Shown here in pieces: positions 35,926 to 54,970 of a DNA stretch of 64,000 bases (the first letter of the stretch is position 1; each line of letters starts with the position of its first letter). The stretch comes from Escherichia phage a48. The notes beneath the pieces were generated by a model. It was not told where the DNA came from, did not search any database, and worked only from the letters and a program-made list of their open reading frames with translations. The stretch is from sequence record OQ067375.1; one strand, given 5' to 3'. The position numbers were made by a program, and so were the translations under genes.

Positions 35926-36113
35926 TATTCTTCTACGTGCTGTTTACGACCTTTCTTATCAATAAAGGTATATTCAACGAATGTTCCAATATAGTCTTTA
36001 TCTACATCATGCGGACTATTAATTGGGCATTTAGTACGGCAAATGCGTTCCCATTGACGAATAATTTCCGCTTTGTTTTTAGGGTCAAACGGATGCGGGT
36101 AATGTGCTTTCAT
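35901..36113 (-). CDS. hypothetical small protein
   Basis: 70-aa ORF. Confidence 0.4.
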   Translation of the reverse strand: MKAHYPHPFDPKNKAEIIRQWERICRTKCPINSPHDVDKDYIGTFVEYTFIDKKGRKQHVEEYCLKVTWL

Positions 36114-36564
36114 AATCCACCACTATTAAATCAATATCAGGAGTAAACATGTCGATTAATTTAGAAACCTTATCCCAATCACCGCCAGCAATACCGCAAC
36201 CTATGCGTGGAATATAAATTACAGGTTTAAACAAAAGGGTTTCTGCCTGTAGATTTAATTCTATCATGCAGTTTACTAAAGCACCATAATCAAGATTAGG
36301 ACCCGGTTCGTATTGTGTATACAGGTTATAGCATATACCAAATCCTGTAGGATTATGTTTAAAAACAATAGACATATCGCCTAATTTATCACGAGAACCG
36401 TACTCGGTAGTGGTTTTATCTATTTCTAAAATTTTGGGATAGGCTCTTGCTAATTGACCTGCTACGCCAGAGCCCATTGTGTGGAAGCAATTACACCCGT
36501 GCGCAATAATATTACCTTGAAGAAATAGGGCGACAATATCGCCCTTGATATATTTTACAATCAT
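36085..36564 (-). CDS. macro-domain protein (predicted ADP-ribose binding/hydrolase)
   Basis: 159-aa ORF; GDIVALFLQGNIIAHGCNCFHTMGSGVAGQLA and IPRIGCGIAGGD match the two glycine-rich macro-domain motifs. Confidence 0.6.
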   Translation of the reverse strand: MIVKYIKGDIVALFLQGNIIAHGCNCFHTMGSGVAGQLARAYPKILEIDKTTTEYGSRDKLGDMSIVFKHNPTGFGICYNLYTQYEPGPNLDYGALVNCMIELNLQAETLLFKPVIYIPRIGCGIAGGDWDKVSKLIDMFTPDIDLIVVDYESTLPASV

Positions 36565-36902
36565 CTAGTACTCAATCCTCGATTATAAGAATCTACTAAA
36601 CGGTCAACCATTGAATGACAAGCGGCTTTGTCTTTCTCCTCCGCAACTGAACATTCTAAGGTATTCCACTTTTTAGCATATCGTTTTAACAATGTATCAT
36701 TTTTATATCTGCTTGATTTATCTCTTTCTCCGTCTTTATATGCATATATTAATTTCTGCGCAAATTCAGCTTGACATGCTTTATTTTTCCCGCAATAATC
36801 CGCGGCAGTACGGTTTACATACTCTCTAATTTCAGTATATGATGTATTTGCTAACGCAGAAAATGAAATTAATCCTACACATAAAACCAAAATTTTAGTC
36901 AT
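36561..36902 (-). CDS. secreted cysteine-containing protein
   Basis: 113-aa ORF with signal peptide MTKILVLCVGLISFSALA. Confidence 0.5.
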   Translation of the reverse strand: MTKILVLCVGLISFSALANTSYTEIREYVNRTAADYCGKNKACQAEFAQKLIYAYKDGERDKSSRYKNDTLLKRYAKKWNTLECSVAEEKDKAACHSMVDRLVDSYNRGLSTR

Positions 36903-37440
36903 TTACTATTTCCAAAAGTTTATTATTTTTAAGGTAATTAGCCTTTTCTAGGACTTCAGAAGCATATTTAGAACCAGCTTTAACATTCCATCCCGAATTA
37001 TAAGAGGATATTGCTTTTCTTATATCGCCCTTATGTATATTTAACCAATAAGAAAGTTCAATGTACGCCCAGGAAGCTGAATTGGATCGTTTATTCAACA
37101 TTCTTTTTATTTCAGCATCAGTCATATTATAACCAAGTTCCTTAACTCTCGCTCGCATAGTAGGCAAATAATTTTGGAACATTCCGTAGGCGTGATGCTT
37201 TGGTTTAGATTTTAAATTAACTCCGCCAGAGCTTTCTTGCCATAAAATGGCTGCCATTATATGACCTAATCCACTCTTGTGGATGTTTTTGTGTGTTTTA
37301 TATTTTCCATCCTTAGAAAATTGTTCCCCGAATTGATACGCGTAACGCATGTTATCGAGTTGGACATTACTGAAAGTATGCTCGGAGCTATGTGCCATCA
37401 TTGAAATGGCCAATAGACCAGCGAGTAGTGCTTTTCTCAT
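36895..37440 (-). CDS. periplasmic lytic-transglycosylase-like protein
   Basis: 181-aa ORF with signal peptide and SLT-like segment WQESSGG...AYGMFQ. Confidence 0.6.
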   Translation of the reverse strand: MRKALLAGLLAISMMAHSSEHTFSNVQLDNMRYAYQFGEQFSKDGKYKTHKNIHKSGLGHIMAAILWQESSGGVNLKSKPKHHAYGMFQNYLPTMRARVKELGYNMTDAEIKRMLNKRSNSASWAYIELSYWLNIHKGDIRKAISSYNSGWNVKAGSKYASEVLEKANYLKNNKLLEIVND

Positions 37441-37447
37441 GCTTACC

Positions 37448-37909
37448 TCATTGAGTTTTAATTACTGCTTTAGAAGCCTTTCCTGGTAAACGACGACTGT
37501 TAATAATTGCCATTCTACATTGAAGTGACGGGTCTTTGAACTTCTCATTAGGTTTACAAACTGTAAATCCAAGCCAAAGATTTCCATCTGTGATTTCTAA
37601 ACGTCCAGGACGATATTCAACCCCATCAATAAAATCCTCATCGATGTCAGGACGCGGAGGCATACTCAGGAATTCATTAACTTCTAAAACATGGTCTTTT
37701 ATTTTGTGGAATAATTCAAAAACATATGTCTCATCAATCTCCCGTTGAATTGCACGATCAAGAAGATGCTGAGAATATTTTAGATGAAACGATGAGACTC
37801 CTGCTGCTTTTGATGCCTCACGAATCTCATTGTTAATTTGACGAAACTCCGACTCAAAGTGACGACGAAGCTTATTTCGACGGATAAAAACTTCAGTGTT
37901 GATAGTCAT
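37448..37909 (-). CDS. regB: endoribonuclease RegB
   Basis: 153-aa ORF, length and position as T4 RegB; canonical early promoter directly upstream. Confidence 0.9.
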   Translation of the reverse strand: MTINTEVFIRRNKLRRHFESEFRQINNEIREASKAAGVSSFHLKYSQHLLDRAIQREIDETYVFELFHKIKDHVLEVNEFLSMPPRPDIDEDFIDGVEYRPGRLEITDGNLWLGFTVCKPNEKFKDPSLQCRMAIINSRRLPGKASKAVIKTQ

Positions 37910-37938
37910 GTTATTCTCCTCTTAACTGATAGAAAAAT

Positions 37939-37966
37939 TATACCACAGTCAAGAGGAAAAGTAAAC
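37939..37966 (-). promoter_or_regulatory. T4-type early promoter for regB
   Basis: Minus sense GTTTAC, spacer, TGgTATAAT (perfect extended -10) upstream of the regB ATG. Confidence 0.65.
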
Positions 37967-37968
37967 AG

Positions 37969-38289
37969 TTATTCTTTAAATCTAATCAATTTATTCATAG
38001 ACTTTGAAACTTCTGCACGAACCTCATGTAGATTTTTGAGCTGTTCAAGACGCTGCGTATAGTAAGCAATTTCATCTTCTTCGAGACAGTCCTGCGAATC
38101 TTCTTTAAGATACCGTGCATAGTCCTGGAAAGCGTTACGGACTACTTCCTGGAAGTCATCAAGACTTTGAATTTTCTTAGGAGCAACAGATACACGACGA
38201 GGGGCAGTATAATACTCATAACCAAACCCTGCGCTTAATTGAGCCATTAGTATTTTTCCTCTGGTTGGAACACTGCACGACAAGCCCAC
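37969..38289 (-). CDS. hypothetical protein (vs.3 position)
   Basis: 106-aa ORF; start may be internal. Confidence 0.45.
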
Positions 38290-38549
38290 ATACTGGCTTC
38301 TTTGAGTTTCGTTTTAGCAATAGTTAACTGATCGAGGCTTTCAGCATAATTCTTCGCGAATTCACAGTCTTCACAATTATCTAGTGCTTCCCAGAATTCA
38401 TCGTATAAAGCGTCAAAGATAAGTCCTAAACGAACTTCAGCGTCTTTGATTGCATTCACTTTACCGATTTTCTCTTCAGTATGTGGTTTATAACCTTTAA
38501 TGTCTTCAATCATATTTGACTTCCTCGCCAGTACCCAAATCATATTCAA
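38247..38549 (-). CDS. small acidic protein, candidate cyclic-nucleotide sponge (Vs.4/Acb2 position)
   Basis: 100-aa ORF (88 aa from MIEDIKGY); assignment is positional only, in the regB-denV block where T4 has vs.4. Confidence 0.4.
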
Positions 38550-38727
38550 CTAAACGAATAGGTTCATGAATGCCATATCCCTGAACAGAAATTTCTGTCG
38601 TAGGATAAATTCCATCAATATCACCCATATTCCACGCTTCATTAAATTGCTGTTCACCTGAATTACTAAACCACTCGGCGAAAGCATTTAACACATCTTC
38701 AGAACCTTCAATAATTATCTTTGCCAT
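38506..38727 (-). CDS. hypothetical small acidic protein
   Basis: 73-aa ORF. Confidence 0.4.
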   Translation of the reverse strand: MAKIIIEGSEDVLNAFAEWFSNSGEQQFNEAWNMGDIDGIYPTTEISVQGYGIHEPIRLVEYDLGTGEEVKYD

Positions 38728-39089
38728 TACAAACTTTCAGTAAAGGTACGAGCGATAACGTCGCGCTGCTGTTCCGGAGTCAGAGAGTTAAAGCGAACTG
38801 CATAACCGGATACACGGATGGTCAGCTGCGGATATTTTTCCGGATGCTTAACTGCATCTTCCAGAGTTTCACGACGCAGAACGTTAACGTTCAGGTGTTG
38901 ACCACCTTCAATTTTAACTGTAGGTTGTGGCTCAATTTCAATTTCACGGGCATGCAAACCATAGAAAATTTCTGGGTCTACAAAAGAGTCCTCTTTAAAG
39001 GTTTTAGAGACAATAATTCGTGCTTGAATACCATCTTCAAAATAAATAGTACCTTTATGTGTGCCTTCAAGAATTTGATATGCTTTCAT
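38727..39089 (-). CDS. autonomous glycyl radical cofactor (GrcA/YfiD-like)
   Basis: 120-aa ORF; C-terminal half [60 protein letters not shown] carries the RVSGY glycine-radical motif and matches E. coli GrcA. Confidence 0.85.
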
Positions 39090-39096
39090 ATAAACC

Positions 39097-39477
39097 TCAA
39101 TTAGAAAATAAATTTATCCAAGATTGTTCTTTAATTAAAAATGGCTCAGAATCATATGCCATTAAACTTTGGGTAATTAACCCTTTAAAAGGTCCATCAA
39201 TAAATTCCATGGTAAAATATGGAATTTTATTCATTAGCCGTGCATTAGGAGCAGTGCACAAAACTCTGCATCCTTTGAATACACCTTTTTGTAATTTGTA
39301 TTGCTTGGGATAAAATTCGCTTAAAATGTTGTTATTTGCCAAAATTTCAAAATGATTCACCAATTTATTTTTAATAGTTTTTGGCGAAAAATAAAGATAT
39401 TCGAAAAGCTGTGTGTCTGTCATCATTGCATTCCGATTACGAAAAACTGCGGACGAGTAATACCACCAATGCAACAT
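39097..39477 (-). CDS. hypothetical protein
   Basis: 126-aa ORF. Confidence 0.45.
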
Positions 39478-40010
39478 TTACTATTACAGCAGTGTTGCAC
39501 AGTTTCAATATGAATATCGTAAATTTTATCCATATCAGGAGATTTAACAGGCTCATCGATTATATACAAAATTCGCGAAAGAGATAAACCTCTGAACTTG
39601 CTTCCTTTATTACCGATAAAACTACGGACAGAATCAGTAAATAAGCGGAATCGAATATCATCACTAGAATAACGAGAAAATTCTTTTTTAATGTGGCCTG
39701 CAGAAATTTTAGCGTAAGCTGAAGTATTAGAAAGAACAATAACTGTTCCACCGTCATACAGCCAATTAGCAGCAAAGTTAGTCACAGCAGTTGATTTACC
39801 AGATTGGCGTCCACCATCTAGTCGAAGTGTACAATATTGTTTAAGCAAGTCTTCAAATGGTGGGATATAATCGTTTTTACAAATTTCTTCTACTCTAGCA
39901 TCAGAATGGTGTGTAAAAGCATTCATCAGGGATAGATAAGGACCAGTTAAAAATGTTCTCATTTTATTCTCTCTAAATTTGGGCCATTCCATGGCACATG
40001 AATTGTCCAT
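39423..40010 (-). CDS. P-loop NTPase-like protein
   Basis: 195-aa ORF with Walker A-like DGGRQSGKST; start uncertain. Confidence 0.5.
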   Translation of the reverse strand: MDNSCAMEWPKFRENKMRTFLTGPYLSLMNAFTHHSDARVEEICKNDYIPPFEDLLKQYCTLRLDGGRQSGKSTAVTNFAANWLYDGGTVIVLSNTSAYAKISAGHIKKEFSRYSSDDIRFRLFTDSVRSFIGNKGSKFRGLSLSRILYIIDEPVKSPDMDKIYDIHIETVQHCCNSKCCIGGITRPQFFVIGMQ

Positions 40011-40115: not shown

Positions 40116-40589
40116 TTATTTGAATGATTTGACGTACTGAATAGAGCCTTTGCTATTCACGAAAGCGATTTTACCATTTTTATTATACATGGTAGCAGTA
40201 CGCTGATAACCATAAGTTTGTTTACCAGATTGATAACCAACTAATGCAAAATTATCTTCGCCCATTTTATTCTGTTTGGCGCGGATACGTTCATGACCGT
40301 GTGCCATAAGAACCTTAGCGTCGCCAGTTGCAATGGATCTACGAGTTTTTTCATCTTCAACCGTATTAACAAAGTCGTCAAATGAATCAAATTTAGCATG
40401 AGATTTATTATACAGTTTTCCATCTACTGCATAATTATATCCCTGTACATCCATCTCAACTTCTGTACCATCATCCAATACAGCAGTGATTTTTTGACCT
40501 TTTTTAAATTTCAAAAGATCAGTAAAAGATTCAGCGATAATTTGAGAATTAATAGCTGCTTCAGTAATAAATTCTTGATATGTTTTCAT
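40116..40589 (-). CDS. internal-protein-like protein with capsid targeting sequence
   Basis: 157-aa ORF starting MKTYQEFITEA (T4 internal-protein targeting signal with protease site after TE); late promoter motif upstream. Confidence 0.6.
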   Translation of the reverse strand: MKTYQEFITEAAINSQIIAESFTDLLKFKKGQKITAVLDDGTEVEMDVQGYNYAVDGKLYNKSHAKFDSFDDFVNTVEDEKTRRSIATGDAKVLMAHGHERIRAKQNKMGEDNFALVGYQSGKQTYGYQRTATMYNKNGKIAFVNSKGSIQYVKSFK

Positions 40590-40598
40590 GTGTTTCCT

Positions 40599-41015
40599 TT
40601 AAATGTAAATATTTTTGCCGTAGTATTTATACCAGTGTGGCTTCATTAAAATTTTTTCATCGAGTCGTTGTTGACTCAATTTAATAGCCGATTTGCATGG
40701 GTTATAATCATTTTTCCATTCTGCTGGAATATCGCTGATGTCAGGAACTTCAGTATCTTTTATACTAAACCCGCGTTTTAAGCATTCCGTTATAATGTCT
40801 GATTGACGCTTTCGCAAAAATTCTAACTTATCATAAAAGAACGTAACATGACCAGAACCTAAAATAAACTCGGAAGATATTTTAAAATCTTTAACCCGCT
40901 TACCATTTGCCACATGTTTACGAACTATACCAAAAACACGTGGCAATTCACGGTATTCTGCGATTAAATGTTGATCAACAAGTTCAGATACTAAAGTCAA
41001 ATTAATACGAGTCAT
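40599..41015 (-). CDS. denV: endonuclease V (pyrimidine-dimer glycosylase)
   Basis: 138-aa [15 protein letters not shown]...[11 protein letters not shown], matches T4 DenV. Confidence 0.93.
40624..40631 (-). promoter_or_regulatory. late promoter (TATAAATA) for the internal-protein-like gene
   Basis: Plus-strand tatttata, i.e. TATAAATA on the minus strand, ~35 nt upstream of the ATG at 40589. Confidence 0.5.
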
Positions 41016-49247: not shown

Positions 49248-49932
<685 letters not shown>

Positions 49933-53259: not shown

Positions 53260-54970
53260 TAACCTCAACTGGTTTGTTGGTGTTGTTGAAGATAGAATGG
53301 ACCCATTAAAATTAGGTCGTGTTCGTGTTCGTGTGGTTGGTTTGCATCCACCTCAAAGAGCACAAGGTGATGTAATGGGTATTCCAACTGATAAATTACC
53401 ATGGATGTCAGTTATTCAACCTATAACTTCTGCAGCAATGTCTGGAATTGGAGGTTCTGTTACTGGACCGGTAGAAGGAACTAGAGTTTATGGTCATTTT
53501 TTAGACAAATGGAAAACTAATGGAATTGTCCTTGGCACGTATGGTGGAATAGTTCGCGAAAAACCGAATAGACTTGAAGGATTTTCTGACCCAACTGGGC
53601 AATATCCTAGACGTTTAGGAAATGATACTAATGTATTAAACCAAGGCGGAGAAGTAGGATATGATTCGTCTTCTAACATTATCCAAGATAGTAACTTAGA
53701 CACTGCAATAAATCCCGATGATAGACCACTATCAGAGATTCCAACCGATGATAATCCAAATATGTCAATGGCTGACATGCTTCGCCGTGATGAAGGATTA
53801 AGACTAAAAGTTTATTGGGATACTGAAGGATATCCGACAATTGGTATTGGTCATCTTATCATGAAGCAGCCAGTTCGTGATATGGCTCAAATTAATAAAG
53901 TTTTATCAAAACAAGTTGGTCGTGAAATTACTGGAAACCCAGGTTCTATTACGATGGAAGAGGCGACGACTTTATTTGAACGTGATTTGGCTGATATGCA
54001 ACGGGACATTAAATCACATTCTAAAGTAGGACCAGTCTGGCAAGCTGTCAACCGTTCTCGTCAAATGGCGTTAGAAAATATGGCATTTCAAATGGGTGTT
54101 GGCGGTGTAGCTAAATTTAACACAATGTTAACTGCTATGTTAGCCGGAGATTGGGAAAAAGCATATAAAGCCGGTCGTGATTCATTGTGGTATCAACAAA
54201 CAAAAGGCCGTGCATCCCGTGTTACCATGATTATTCTTACGGGGAATTTGGAATCATATGGTGTTGAAGTGAAAACCCCAGCTAGGTCTCTATCAGCAAT
54301 GGCTGCTACTGTAGCTAAATCTTCTGACCCGGCTGACCCTCCTATTCCAAATGACTCGAGAATTTTATTCAAAGAACCAGTTTCTTCATATAAAGGTGAA
54401 TATCCTTATGTGCATACAATGGAAACTGAAAGCGGACATATTCAGGAATTTGATGATACTCCTGGGCAAGAACGATACAGATTAGTTCATCCGACTGGAA
54501 CTTATGAAGAAGTATCACCGTCAGGAAGAAGAACAAGAAAAACTGTCGATAATTTGTATGATATAACCAACGCTGATGGTAATTTTTTGGTAGCCGGTGA
54601 TAAAAAGACTAACGTCGGTGGATCAGAAATTTATTACAACATGGATAATCGTCTTCACCAAATAGATGGAAGCAATACAATATTTGTACGTGGCGATGAA
54701 ACTAAGACAGTTGAAGGCAATGGAACTATCCTAGTTAAAGGTAATGTTACTATTGTAGTTGAAGGTAATGCTGACATTACAGTTAAAGGAGATGCTACCA
54801 CTTTAGTTGAAGGAAATCAAACTAACACAGTAAATGGAAATCTTTCTTGGAAAGTTGCTGGGACAGTTGATTGGGACGTTGGTGGTGATTGGACAGAAAA
54901 AATGGCATCTATGAGTTCTATTTCATCTGGTCAATACACAATTGATGGATCGAGGATTGACATTGGCTAA
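53243..54970 (+). CDS. 5: baseplate hub / tail-associated lysozyme and cell-puncturing spike
   Basis: 575-aa ORF; central lysozyme domain (DEGLRLKVYWDTEGYPTIGIGHL) and C-terminal VxGxxxxx beta-helix repeats. Confidence 0.96.
   Translation: MEMISNNLNWFVGVVEDRMDPLKLGRVRVRVVGLHPPQRAQGDVMGIPTDKLPWMSVIQPITSAAMSGIGGSVTGPVEGTRVYGHFLDKWKTNGIVLGTYGGIVREKPNRLEGFSDPTGQYPRRLGNDTNVLNQGGEVGYDSSSNIIQDSNLDTAINPDDRPLSEIPTDDNPNMSMADMLRRDEGLRLKVYWDTEGYPTIGIGHLIMKQPVRDMAQINKVLSKQVGREITGNPGSITMEEATTLFERDLADMQRDIKSHSKVGPVWQAVNRSRQMALENMAFQMGVGGVAKFNTMLTAMLAGDWEKAYKAGRDSLWYQQTKGRASRVTMIILTGNLESYGVEVKTPARSLSAMAATVAKSSDPADPPIPNDSRILFKEPVSSYKGEYPYVHTMETESGHIQEFDDTPGQERYRLVHPTGTYEEVSPSGRRTRKTVDNLYDITNADGNFLVAGDKKTNVGGSEIYYNMDNRLHQIDGSNTIFVRGDETKTVEGNGTILVKGNVTIVVEGNADITVKGDATTLVEGNQTNTVNGNLSWKVAGTVDWDVGGDWTEKMASMSSISSGQYTIDGSRIDIG

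Follow-up and report, generated by a model that had tools for sequence, protein, structure and literature searches.

Do the three small acidic open reading frames (ORFs) at positions 37969-38727 of a T4-like phage genome include a cyclic-nucleotide sponge, and if so, which of the three encodes it? The question arose from a stretch of 64,000 nucleotides of Escherichia phage a48 (sequence record OQ067375.1), hereafter the window, in which an earlier reading of the letters (the original prediction) had picked an 88-aa ORF as the candidate Vs.4/Acb2 by position. We find that the interval corresponds exactly to vs.3, vs.4 and vs.5, and we put at about 97% the probability that it is the T4-like vs.5-vs.4-vs.3 stretch, in which vs.4 would encode the Acb2 cyclic-dinucleotide sponge and vs.3 the N7-cADPR sponge TadIV-1. 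What was computed here is the identity of the sequences, their family membership and the conservation of residues; for binding, oligomeric state and phenotypes, we rely on published work on the T4 proteins of identical sequence.

The window phage is T4-like (Tequatrovirus): a megablast of positions 37400-39400 matched 803 phage records, with the Tequatrovirus genomes ECML-134, T4 and T2 at the top (98.0-98.4% nucleotide identity). Over positions 30000-54000, the best records were Yersinia phage fPS-90, phage REP3 and Shigella phage SHFML-26, which aligned in several pieces at 95-97% nucleotide identity. By these alignments, the phage is a mosaic Tequatrovirus that differs from T4 itself.

The gene map was established from the T4T annotation and from tblastn of T4 proteins against the window, and every credible gene from 36.0 to 41.6 kb is carried by the minus strand. 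Read in the direction of transcription, it comprises denV (40605-41015, 77% to T4), an internal-protein-like gene of 157 aa (40116-40589, Pfam DUF7412), vs.8 (39423-40010, 92% to the T4 protein over residues 34-216), vs.7 (39097-39426, 99.1%) and vs.6, which encodes a GrcA-like glycyl-radical cofactor (38727-39089, 100% to T4 Vs.6; Pfam Gly_radical, 66.8 bits). Immediately downstream are vs.5 (38506-38727; 73 aa, 98.6% to T4 with one substitution), vs.4 (38247-38513; 88 aa, 100%) and vs.3 (37969-38247; 92 aa, 100%). The next gene downstream of vs.3 is regB, encoding the endoribonuclease (37448-37909; 100% amino acid identity to T4 RegB; Pfam REGB_T4, 230.8 bits), followed by vs.1 (36895-37440, 100%), vs (36561-36902, 95.7%) and a tk.4-like macro-domain gene (36085-36564, 58%). 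The three small acidic ORFs announced for the regB-denV block were thus all found, next to regB on the minus strand; they had been described as lying "after regB", and the direction of transcription places them upstream of it. The block itself had been likened to that of T4, which holds for the vs genes and fails for the 157-aa internal-protein-like gene that intervenes between vs.8 and denV.

Other departures from T4 surround the block. The order vs.8, 157-aa DUF7412 gene, denV, e replaces the T4 order vs.8, denV, ipII, ipIII, e; the internal-protein-like gene, whose product begins with MKTYQEFITEA, lies between vs.8 and denV in ECML-134 too. T4 ipI and ipIII had no match within the window, and ipII gave a weak match restricted to its N-terminal part. 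The vs.8 gene aligns to T4 Vs.8 (216 aa) in two differently framed pieces (40074-39967 and 39977-39426 on the minus strand), whereas the intact ORF has 195 aa and begins, as it does in the ECML-134 annotation, with an ATG (40010); compared with T4, the gene shows either an apparent frameshift or the use of another start. At the tk.4 position, the macro-domain ORF (36085-36564, minus strand) is only 58% identical to T4 Tk.4 among neighbors at 96-100%, a sign that this segment is mosaic and has diverged locally. Derivatives of ADP-ribose are the targets of macro domains, so that a link of this ORF to ADP-ribose-based defense signaling is conceivable. A second lysozyme-like match at 53762-54259 on the plus strand is 43% identical to T4 e and lies where the lysozyme domain of the baseplate hub protein gp5 would be expected in a T4-like phage.

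The three central genes run over their full length from an ATG to an intact stop codon and encode acidic proteins (pI 5.47 for Vs.3, 4.66 for Vs.4 and 4.05 for Vs.5). Their packing is tight: a TAATG is common to the stop/start junctions of vs.6/vs.5 and of vs.4/vs.3, the start of vs.3 and the stop of vs.4 share one base, and the vs.5 and vs.4 reading frames overlap by 8 nt. Mechanical ORF calling extends vs.3 to a GTG at 38289 and vs.4 to a TTG at 38549; the start of vs.4 is the ATG at 38513, with GAGGAA ahead of it. The original prediction had delimited the 88-aa ORF as 38247..38549, of which the length and the 38247 boundary stand and 38549 proves to be the mechanical TTG limit. Compared with T4T, the substitutions in vs.3, vs.4 and vs.5 taken together are synonymous in 19 cases and non-synonymous in 1, only ~20% of the sites being synonymous (binomial P ~6e-13), an excess which argues that they are constrained coding sequences and not chance ORFs. 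That the three might be remnants of decayed genes in this phage, or ORFs present by chance, draws no support from the data, even though the mechanical ORF list contains many overlapping spurious ORFs here, and is vanishingly improbable given the full-length frames, the 19:1 ratio and the presence of these genes in about 1,000-1,200 phage records.

Which of these three genuine genes would encode the cyclic-nucleotide sponge? Alignment of all three ORFs to Vs.4/Acb2, the check put forward with the original prediction, bore out the choice of the 88-aa ORF starting with MIEDIKGY; the outcome named as refuting it, no alignment from any of the three, did not occur. In a phmmer search of all PDB chains, this ORF matched T4 Vs.4 (PDB 7UQ2) with 88/88 identical residues (E 1.9e-57), and the Pfam family PF24729 Acb2_Tad1_hairpin matched its residues 7-83 at 71.4 bits (E 7.1e-20), the gathering cut-off being 27 bits. 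A PHROGs search assigned it to phrog_717 (E 2.3e-32), the PHROG by which Jenson et al. gathered 198 Vs.4 homologues (PMC10097602). Against T4T Vs.4, the protein is 100% identical, the gene differing by 9 nucleotides, 9 of them synonymous and 0 non-synonymous. A tblastn search found Vs.4 in 1,235 phage records, with identity reaching at least 99% in 121.

The residues on which the published function depends were then located, using the cGAMP-contact and hexamer-interface lists available for T4 Vs.4 (PMC10097602; pocket residues also in PMC10312549). All cGAMP-contact residues (Y8, F82, H11, K23 and R79) and all hexamer-interface residues (L29, F33, A66, A73 and A77) are kept, as are the residues from a published genetic screen (T12, L60, S74 and A77) and the smaller-pocket residues of Cao et al. 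(Y37, A57, L60, D61 and T64). The second pocket, which accommodates cyclic trinucleotides in PaMx33 Acb2, is not reproduced, since D61 replaces R67, T68 being kept. By these residues, Vs.4 of the window phage falls in the dinucleotide-only Acb2 subgroup. Nothing in the sequence speaks against its being Acb2.

The T4 protein has been extensively characterized. Jenson et al. reported that T4 Vs.4 binds 3',3'-cGAMP with a Kd of ~30 nM, that its hexamer holds 3 cGAMP molecules in dimer-interface pockets, and that it stops the activation of the CapV phospholipase by cGAMP in vitro (PMC10097602). In the same study, a vs.4 knockout of T4 suffered a ~50-fold loss of titre on a CBASS host with inactive Cap2 conjugation (PMC10097602). 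Cao et al. measured a Kd of ~84 nM for T4 Acb2 and found that it binds cyclic dinucleotides and neither cA3 nor cAAG, a ligand range that they attribute to the smaller pocket (PMC10312549). Across the two studies, the tight cGAMP binding on which the original prediction drew is documented by two values, and the hexamer by ultracentrifugation and crystal structure.

On this basis, six copies of Vs.4 would assemble into a hexamer in which every pocket, of three in all, lies between two subunits. In each pocket, Y8 and F82 would grip the cyclic dinucleotide, 3',3'-cGAMP or another, from both sides, and H11, K23 and R79 would add hydrogen bonds and salt bridges to it. The signal of the host cGAS-like enzyme would be held without being degraded, and a CBASS effector such as the phospholipase CapV would therefore never receive it. 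Cyclic trinucleotides, which T4-type Acb2 does not bind, would be left to the nuclease Acb1 (57B), ~11 kb away in the window.

That second factor was also retrieved. T4 gp57B matched the window at 49251-49706 on the minus strand with 152/152 identical residues, corresponding to a gene at 49248-49706 (minus strand; 152 aa, 100% to T4 gp57B). The product matches Pfam PF23474 Acb1 at 202.7 bits and displays two H-x-T/S motifs, namely HST at H44 and HIT at H113. By identity and motifs, 57B is Acb1, a 2H-phosphoesterase predicted to cleave cyclic oligonucleotides (anti-CBASS 1). The expectation that a signal-degrading and a signal-sequestering factor occur together is hence upheld, 57B/Acb1 and Vs.4/Acb2 both lying in the window; the pairing is already published, as Cao et al. 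expressly note the presence of Acb1 as well as Acb2 in T4 (PMC10312549).

An alternative view would give Vs.4 another main purpose, such as capture of the Thoeris signal 3'cADPR, or would see it as a net liability through decoy defenses, with anti-CBASS activity being secondary. 3'cADPR is indeed a ligand of some Acb2 homologues, which inhibit type I Thoeris (PMC12393519), and T4 Acb2 binds the decoy 2',3'-c-di-AMP, being necessary and sufficient to trigger Panoptes (OptSE; PMC12657218). The ligands measured for the T4 protein itself are nonetheless cyclic dinucleotides and its knockout phenotype is CBASS-specific (PMC10097602, PMC10312549), whereas Panoptes triggering is a consequence of sponge activity and not an alternative function. 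We consider this alternative quite unlikely, and retain Vs.4 as a predicted cyclic-dinucleotide sponge acting against CBASS.

The original prediction treated Vs.3 as a neighbor only; Vs.3 corresponds to a published sponge, TadIV-1. The window protein is identical to T4 Vs.3 over 92/92 residues and matches PDB 9WIW, a homologue from phage UPEC07 (109-aa chain named "Endoribonuclease"), with E 2.6e-37; its weak matches to Tex_N, parvalbumin and Cas11f all fell below threshold. Chen et al. (Nat Commun 2026, PMC13243611) identified T4 Vs.3 as TadIV-1 through a T4 x T6 mating screen, and described it as the only protein by which T4 inhibits type IV Thoeris and as a dimeric N7-cADPR sponge (KD ~216 nM) whose pocket uses a flexible N-terminal loop. 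They also reported activity for the long homologues (~90 aa), none for the short ones (~70 aa), and a role of R17, R18 and K24 in the function of T4 TadIV-1 (PMC13243611). Vs.3 of the window phage is of the long form (92 aa) with R17, R18 and K24 present, and dimeric Vs.3 would sequester N7-cADPR, the type IV Thoeris signal, via the flexible N-terminal loop containing these residues. According to Chen et al. (PMC13243611), T2 remains sensitive to type IV Thoeris in spite of its functional TadIV-1.

The name given to 9WIW, together with the location of vs.3 directly upstream of regB, led us to consider Vs.3 as an antitoxin-like partner of RegB; this was rejected, as the 9WIW paper shows a TadIV-1 sponge. 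The molecule name "Endoribonuclease" looks like an inherited mis-annotation.

With one published sponge next to another and three small, acidic products, could the cGAMP sponge be Vs.3 or Vs.5 instead of the 88-aa ORF? Only the latter matches 7UQ2 and the Pfam Acb2 family; neither Vs.3 nor Vs.5 gave an Acb2/Tad1 match in the PDB sequence search or in Pfam. Binding of CBASS signals by TadIV-1, moreover, was not detected, and its specificity appears to be for N7-cADPR (PMC13243611). An assignment of the cGAMP sponge to Vs.3 or Vs.5 is accordingly extremely unlikely. As judged from their sequences, the two adjacent genes vs.4 and vs.3 encode unrelated sponges directed against two different signaling defenses.

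The function of vs.5 is more difficult to predict. Its product belongs to phrog_1986, a PHROGs family of unknown function, and gave no significant match among PDB sequences, in Pfam or in PADLOC, the best being SurE (E 0.2) and UvsW_N (E 0.056), both below the cut-off. A tblastn search recovered Vs.5 in 988 phage records, and 30/30 records sampled across the ranking were T4-like phages of enterobacteria in which the ORF is annotated only as hypothetical. Two protein searches yielded 34 relatives, all named ones originating from T4-like phages, to which Vs.5 appears confined. A first structural model built from 11 sequences was unreliable (pLDDT 60) and was not used; a profile search extended the set to 31 sequences and raised the pLDDT to 87.6. 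In the resulting model, residues 10-33 form a long helix that packs on a β hairpin (44-49/58-63), and comparison of this confident model with the PDB returned no fold match. A literature search for Vs.5 returned no phage papers, and vs.3, vs.4 and vs.5 are absent from the main text of a T4 time-course omics paper. When Vs.3 to Vs.8 were expressed singly, only Vs.3 inhibited type IV Thoeris (Chen et al., PMC13243611). Vs.5 might be a third counter-defense protein, which would make vs.5-vs.4-vs.3 a small anti-signaling cassette of T-even phages. The positive evidence for this idea, which we regard as rather doubtful, consists of position (the reading frame overlaps vs.4), size (73 aa), charge (pI 4.05) and conservation, the gene being under purifying selection.

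How the three genes are expressed was approached through transcription signals. The 59-bp gap between vs.3 and regB (37910-37968) contains a promoter-like site at 37937-37965 on the minus strand (TTTACT-17-TATAAT with an extended TG), which matches the consensus at 10/12 positions, as a pattern only. This site may be the early promoter of regB; in the scan for promoters and terminators, sites were no more frequent than in shuffled sequence (15 vs 12.3 +/- 2.8 in the promoter scan), and no transcription unit was drawn from it. In the same gap, the ribosome-binding site of regB includes GGAG, the RegB cleavage motif. Self-regulation of regB is known in T4, and a GGAG in this ribosome-binding site is consistent with it. 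The tight gene packing and the use by Chen et al. of "the promoter of vs.8" (PMC13243611) suggest that vs.5-vs.4-vs.3 is expressed as one early unit. Expression level or host context could differ from T4, as the window phage is not T4.

This work supports the annotation of the window phage with acb2 (vs.4), tadIV-1 (vs.3) and acb1 (57B). Among the database records listed for them, most still carry the name "hypothetical protein". From the T4 literature, the phage is predicted to resist dinucleotide-type CBASS through Acb2 and Acb1, trinucleotide-type CBASS through Acb1, and type IV Thoeris through TadIV-1. It should conversely be sensitive to decoy-based Panoptes, triggered by Acb2.

Among known systems, one relative is the Acb2 of Pseudomonas phage PaMx33 (PDB 8H2J, 8IXZ and others; Huiting et al. 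2023; PMC10312549), which shares with Vs.4 the Pfam family and the three cyclic-dinucleotide pockets per hexamer. The two proteins are only ~24% identical, in a weak full-length phmmer alignment (E ~0.03), in which Y11 and K26 of PaMx33 Acb2 align with Y8 and K23 of the window protein. PaMx33 Acb2 has an extra cyclic-trinucleotide pocket (R67, T74), whereas in the T4-type protein R67 is replaced by D61 and the helix is straighter (PMC10312549). TadIV-1, represented by T4 Vs.3 and by UPEC07 9WIW, is unrelated to Acb2: as a two-helix dimer, it binds N7-cADPR, not cGAMP, in a pocket formed by a flexible loop; window Vs.3 reproduces the T4 sequence in full, including the long form and R17/R18/K24. 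Acb1 (T4 gp57B; Hobbs et al. 2022, as cited in PMC10312549), with which the window 57B is 100% identical, differs from Vs.4 in being an enzyme that cleaves signals instead of sequestering them, and is unrelated in sequence and fold. The closest counterpart is T4 Vs.4/Acb2 itself (PDB 7UQ2; Jenson et al., Nature 2023, PMC10097602), which has the same 88-residue sequence with the same functional residues and whose gene is likewise placed between vs.5 and vs.3, upstream of regB. The window gene differs from it by the 9 synonymous changes only, and by its carrier, a different mosaic Tequatrovirus. By this comparison, vs.4 of phage a48 is a copy of the already characterized T4 Vs.4 (Acb2), nothing about it being new.
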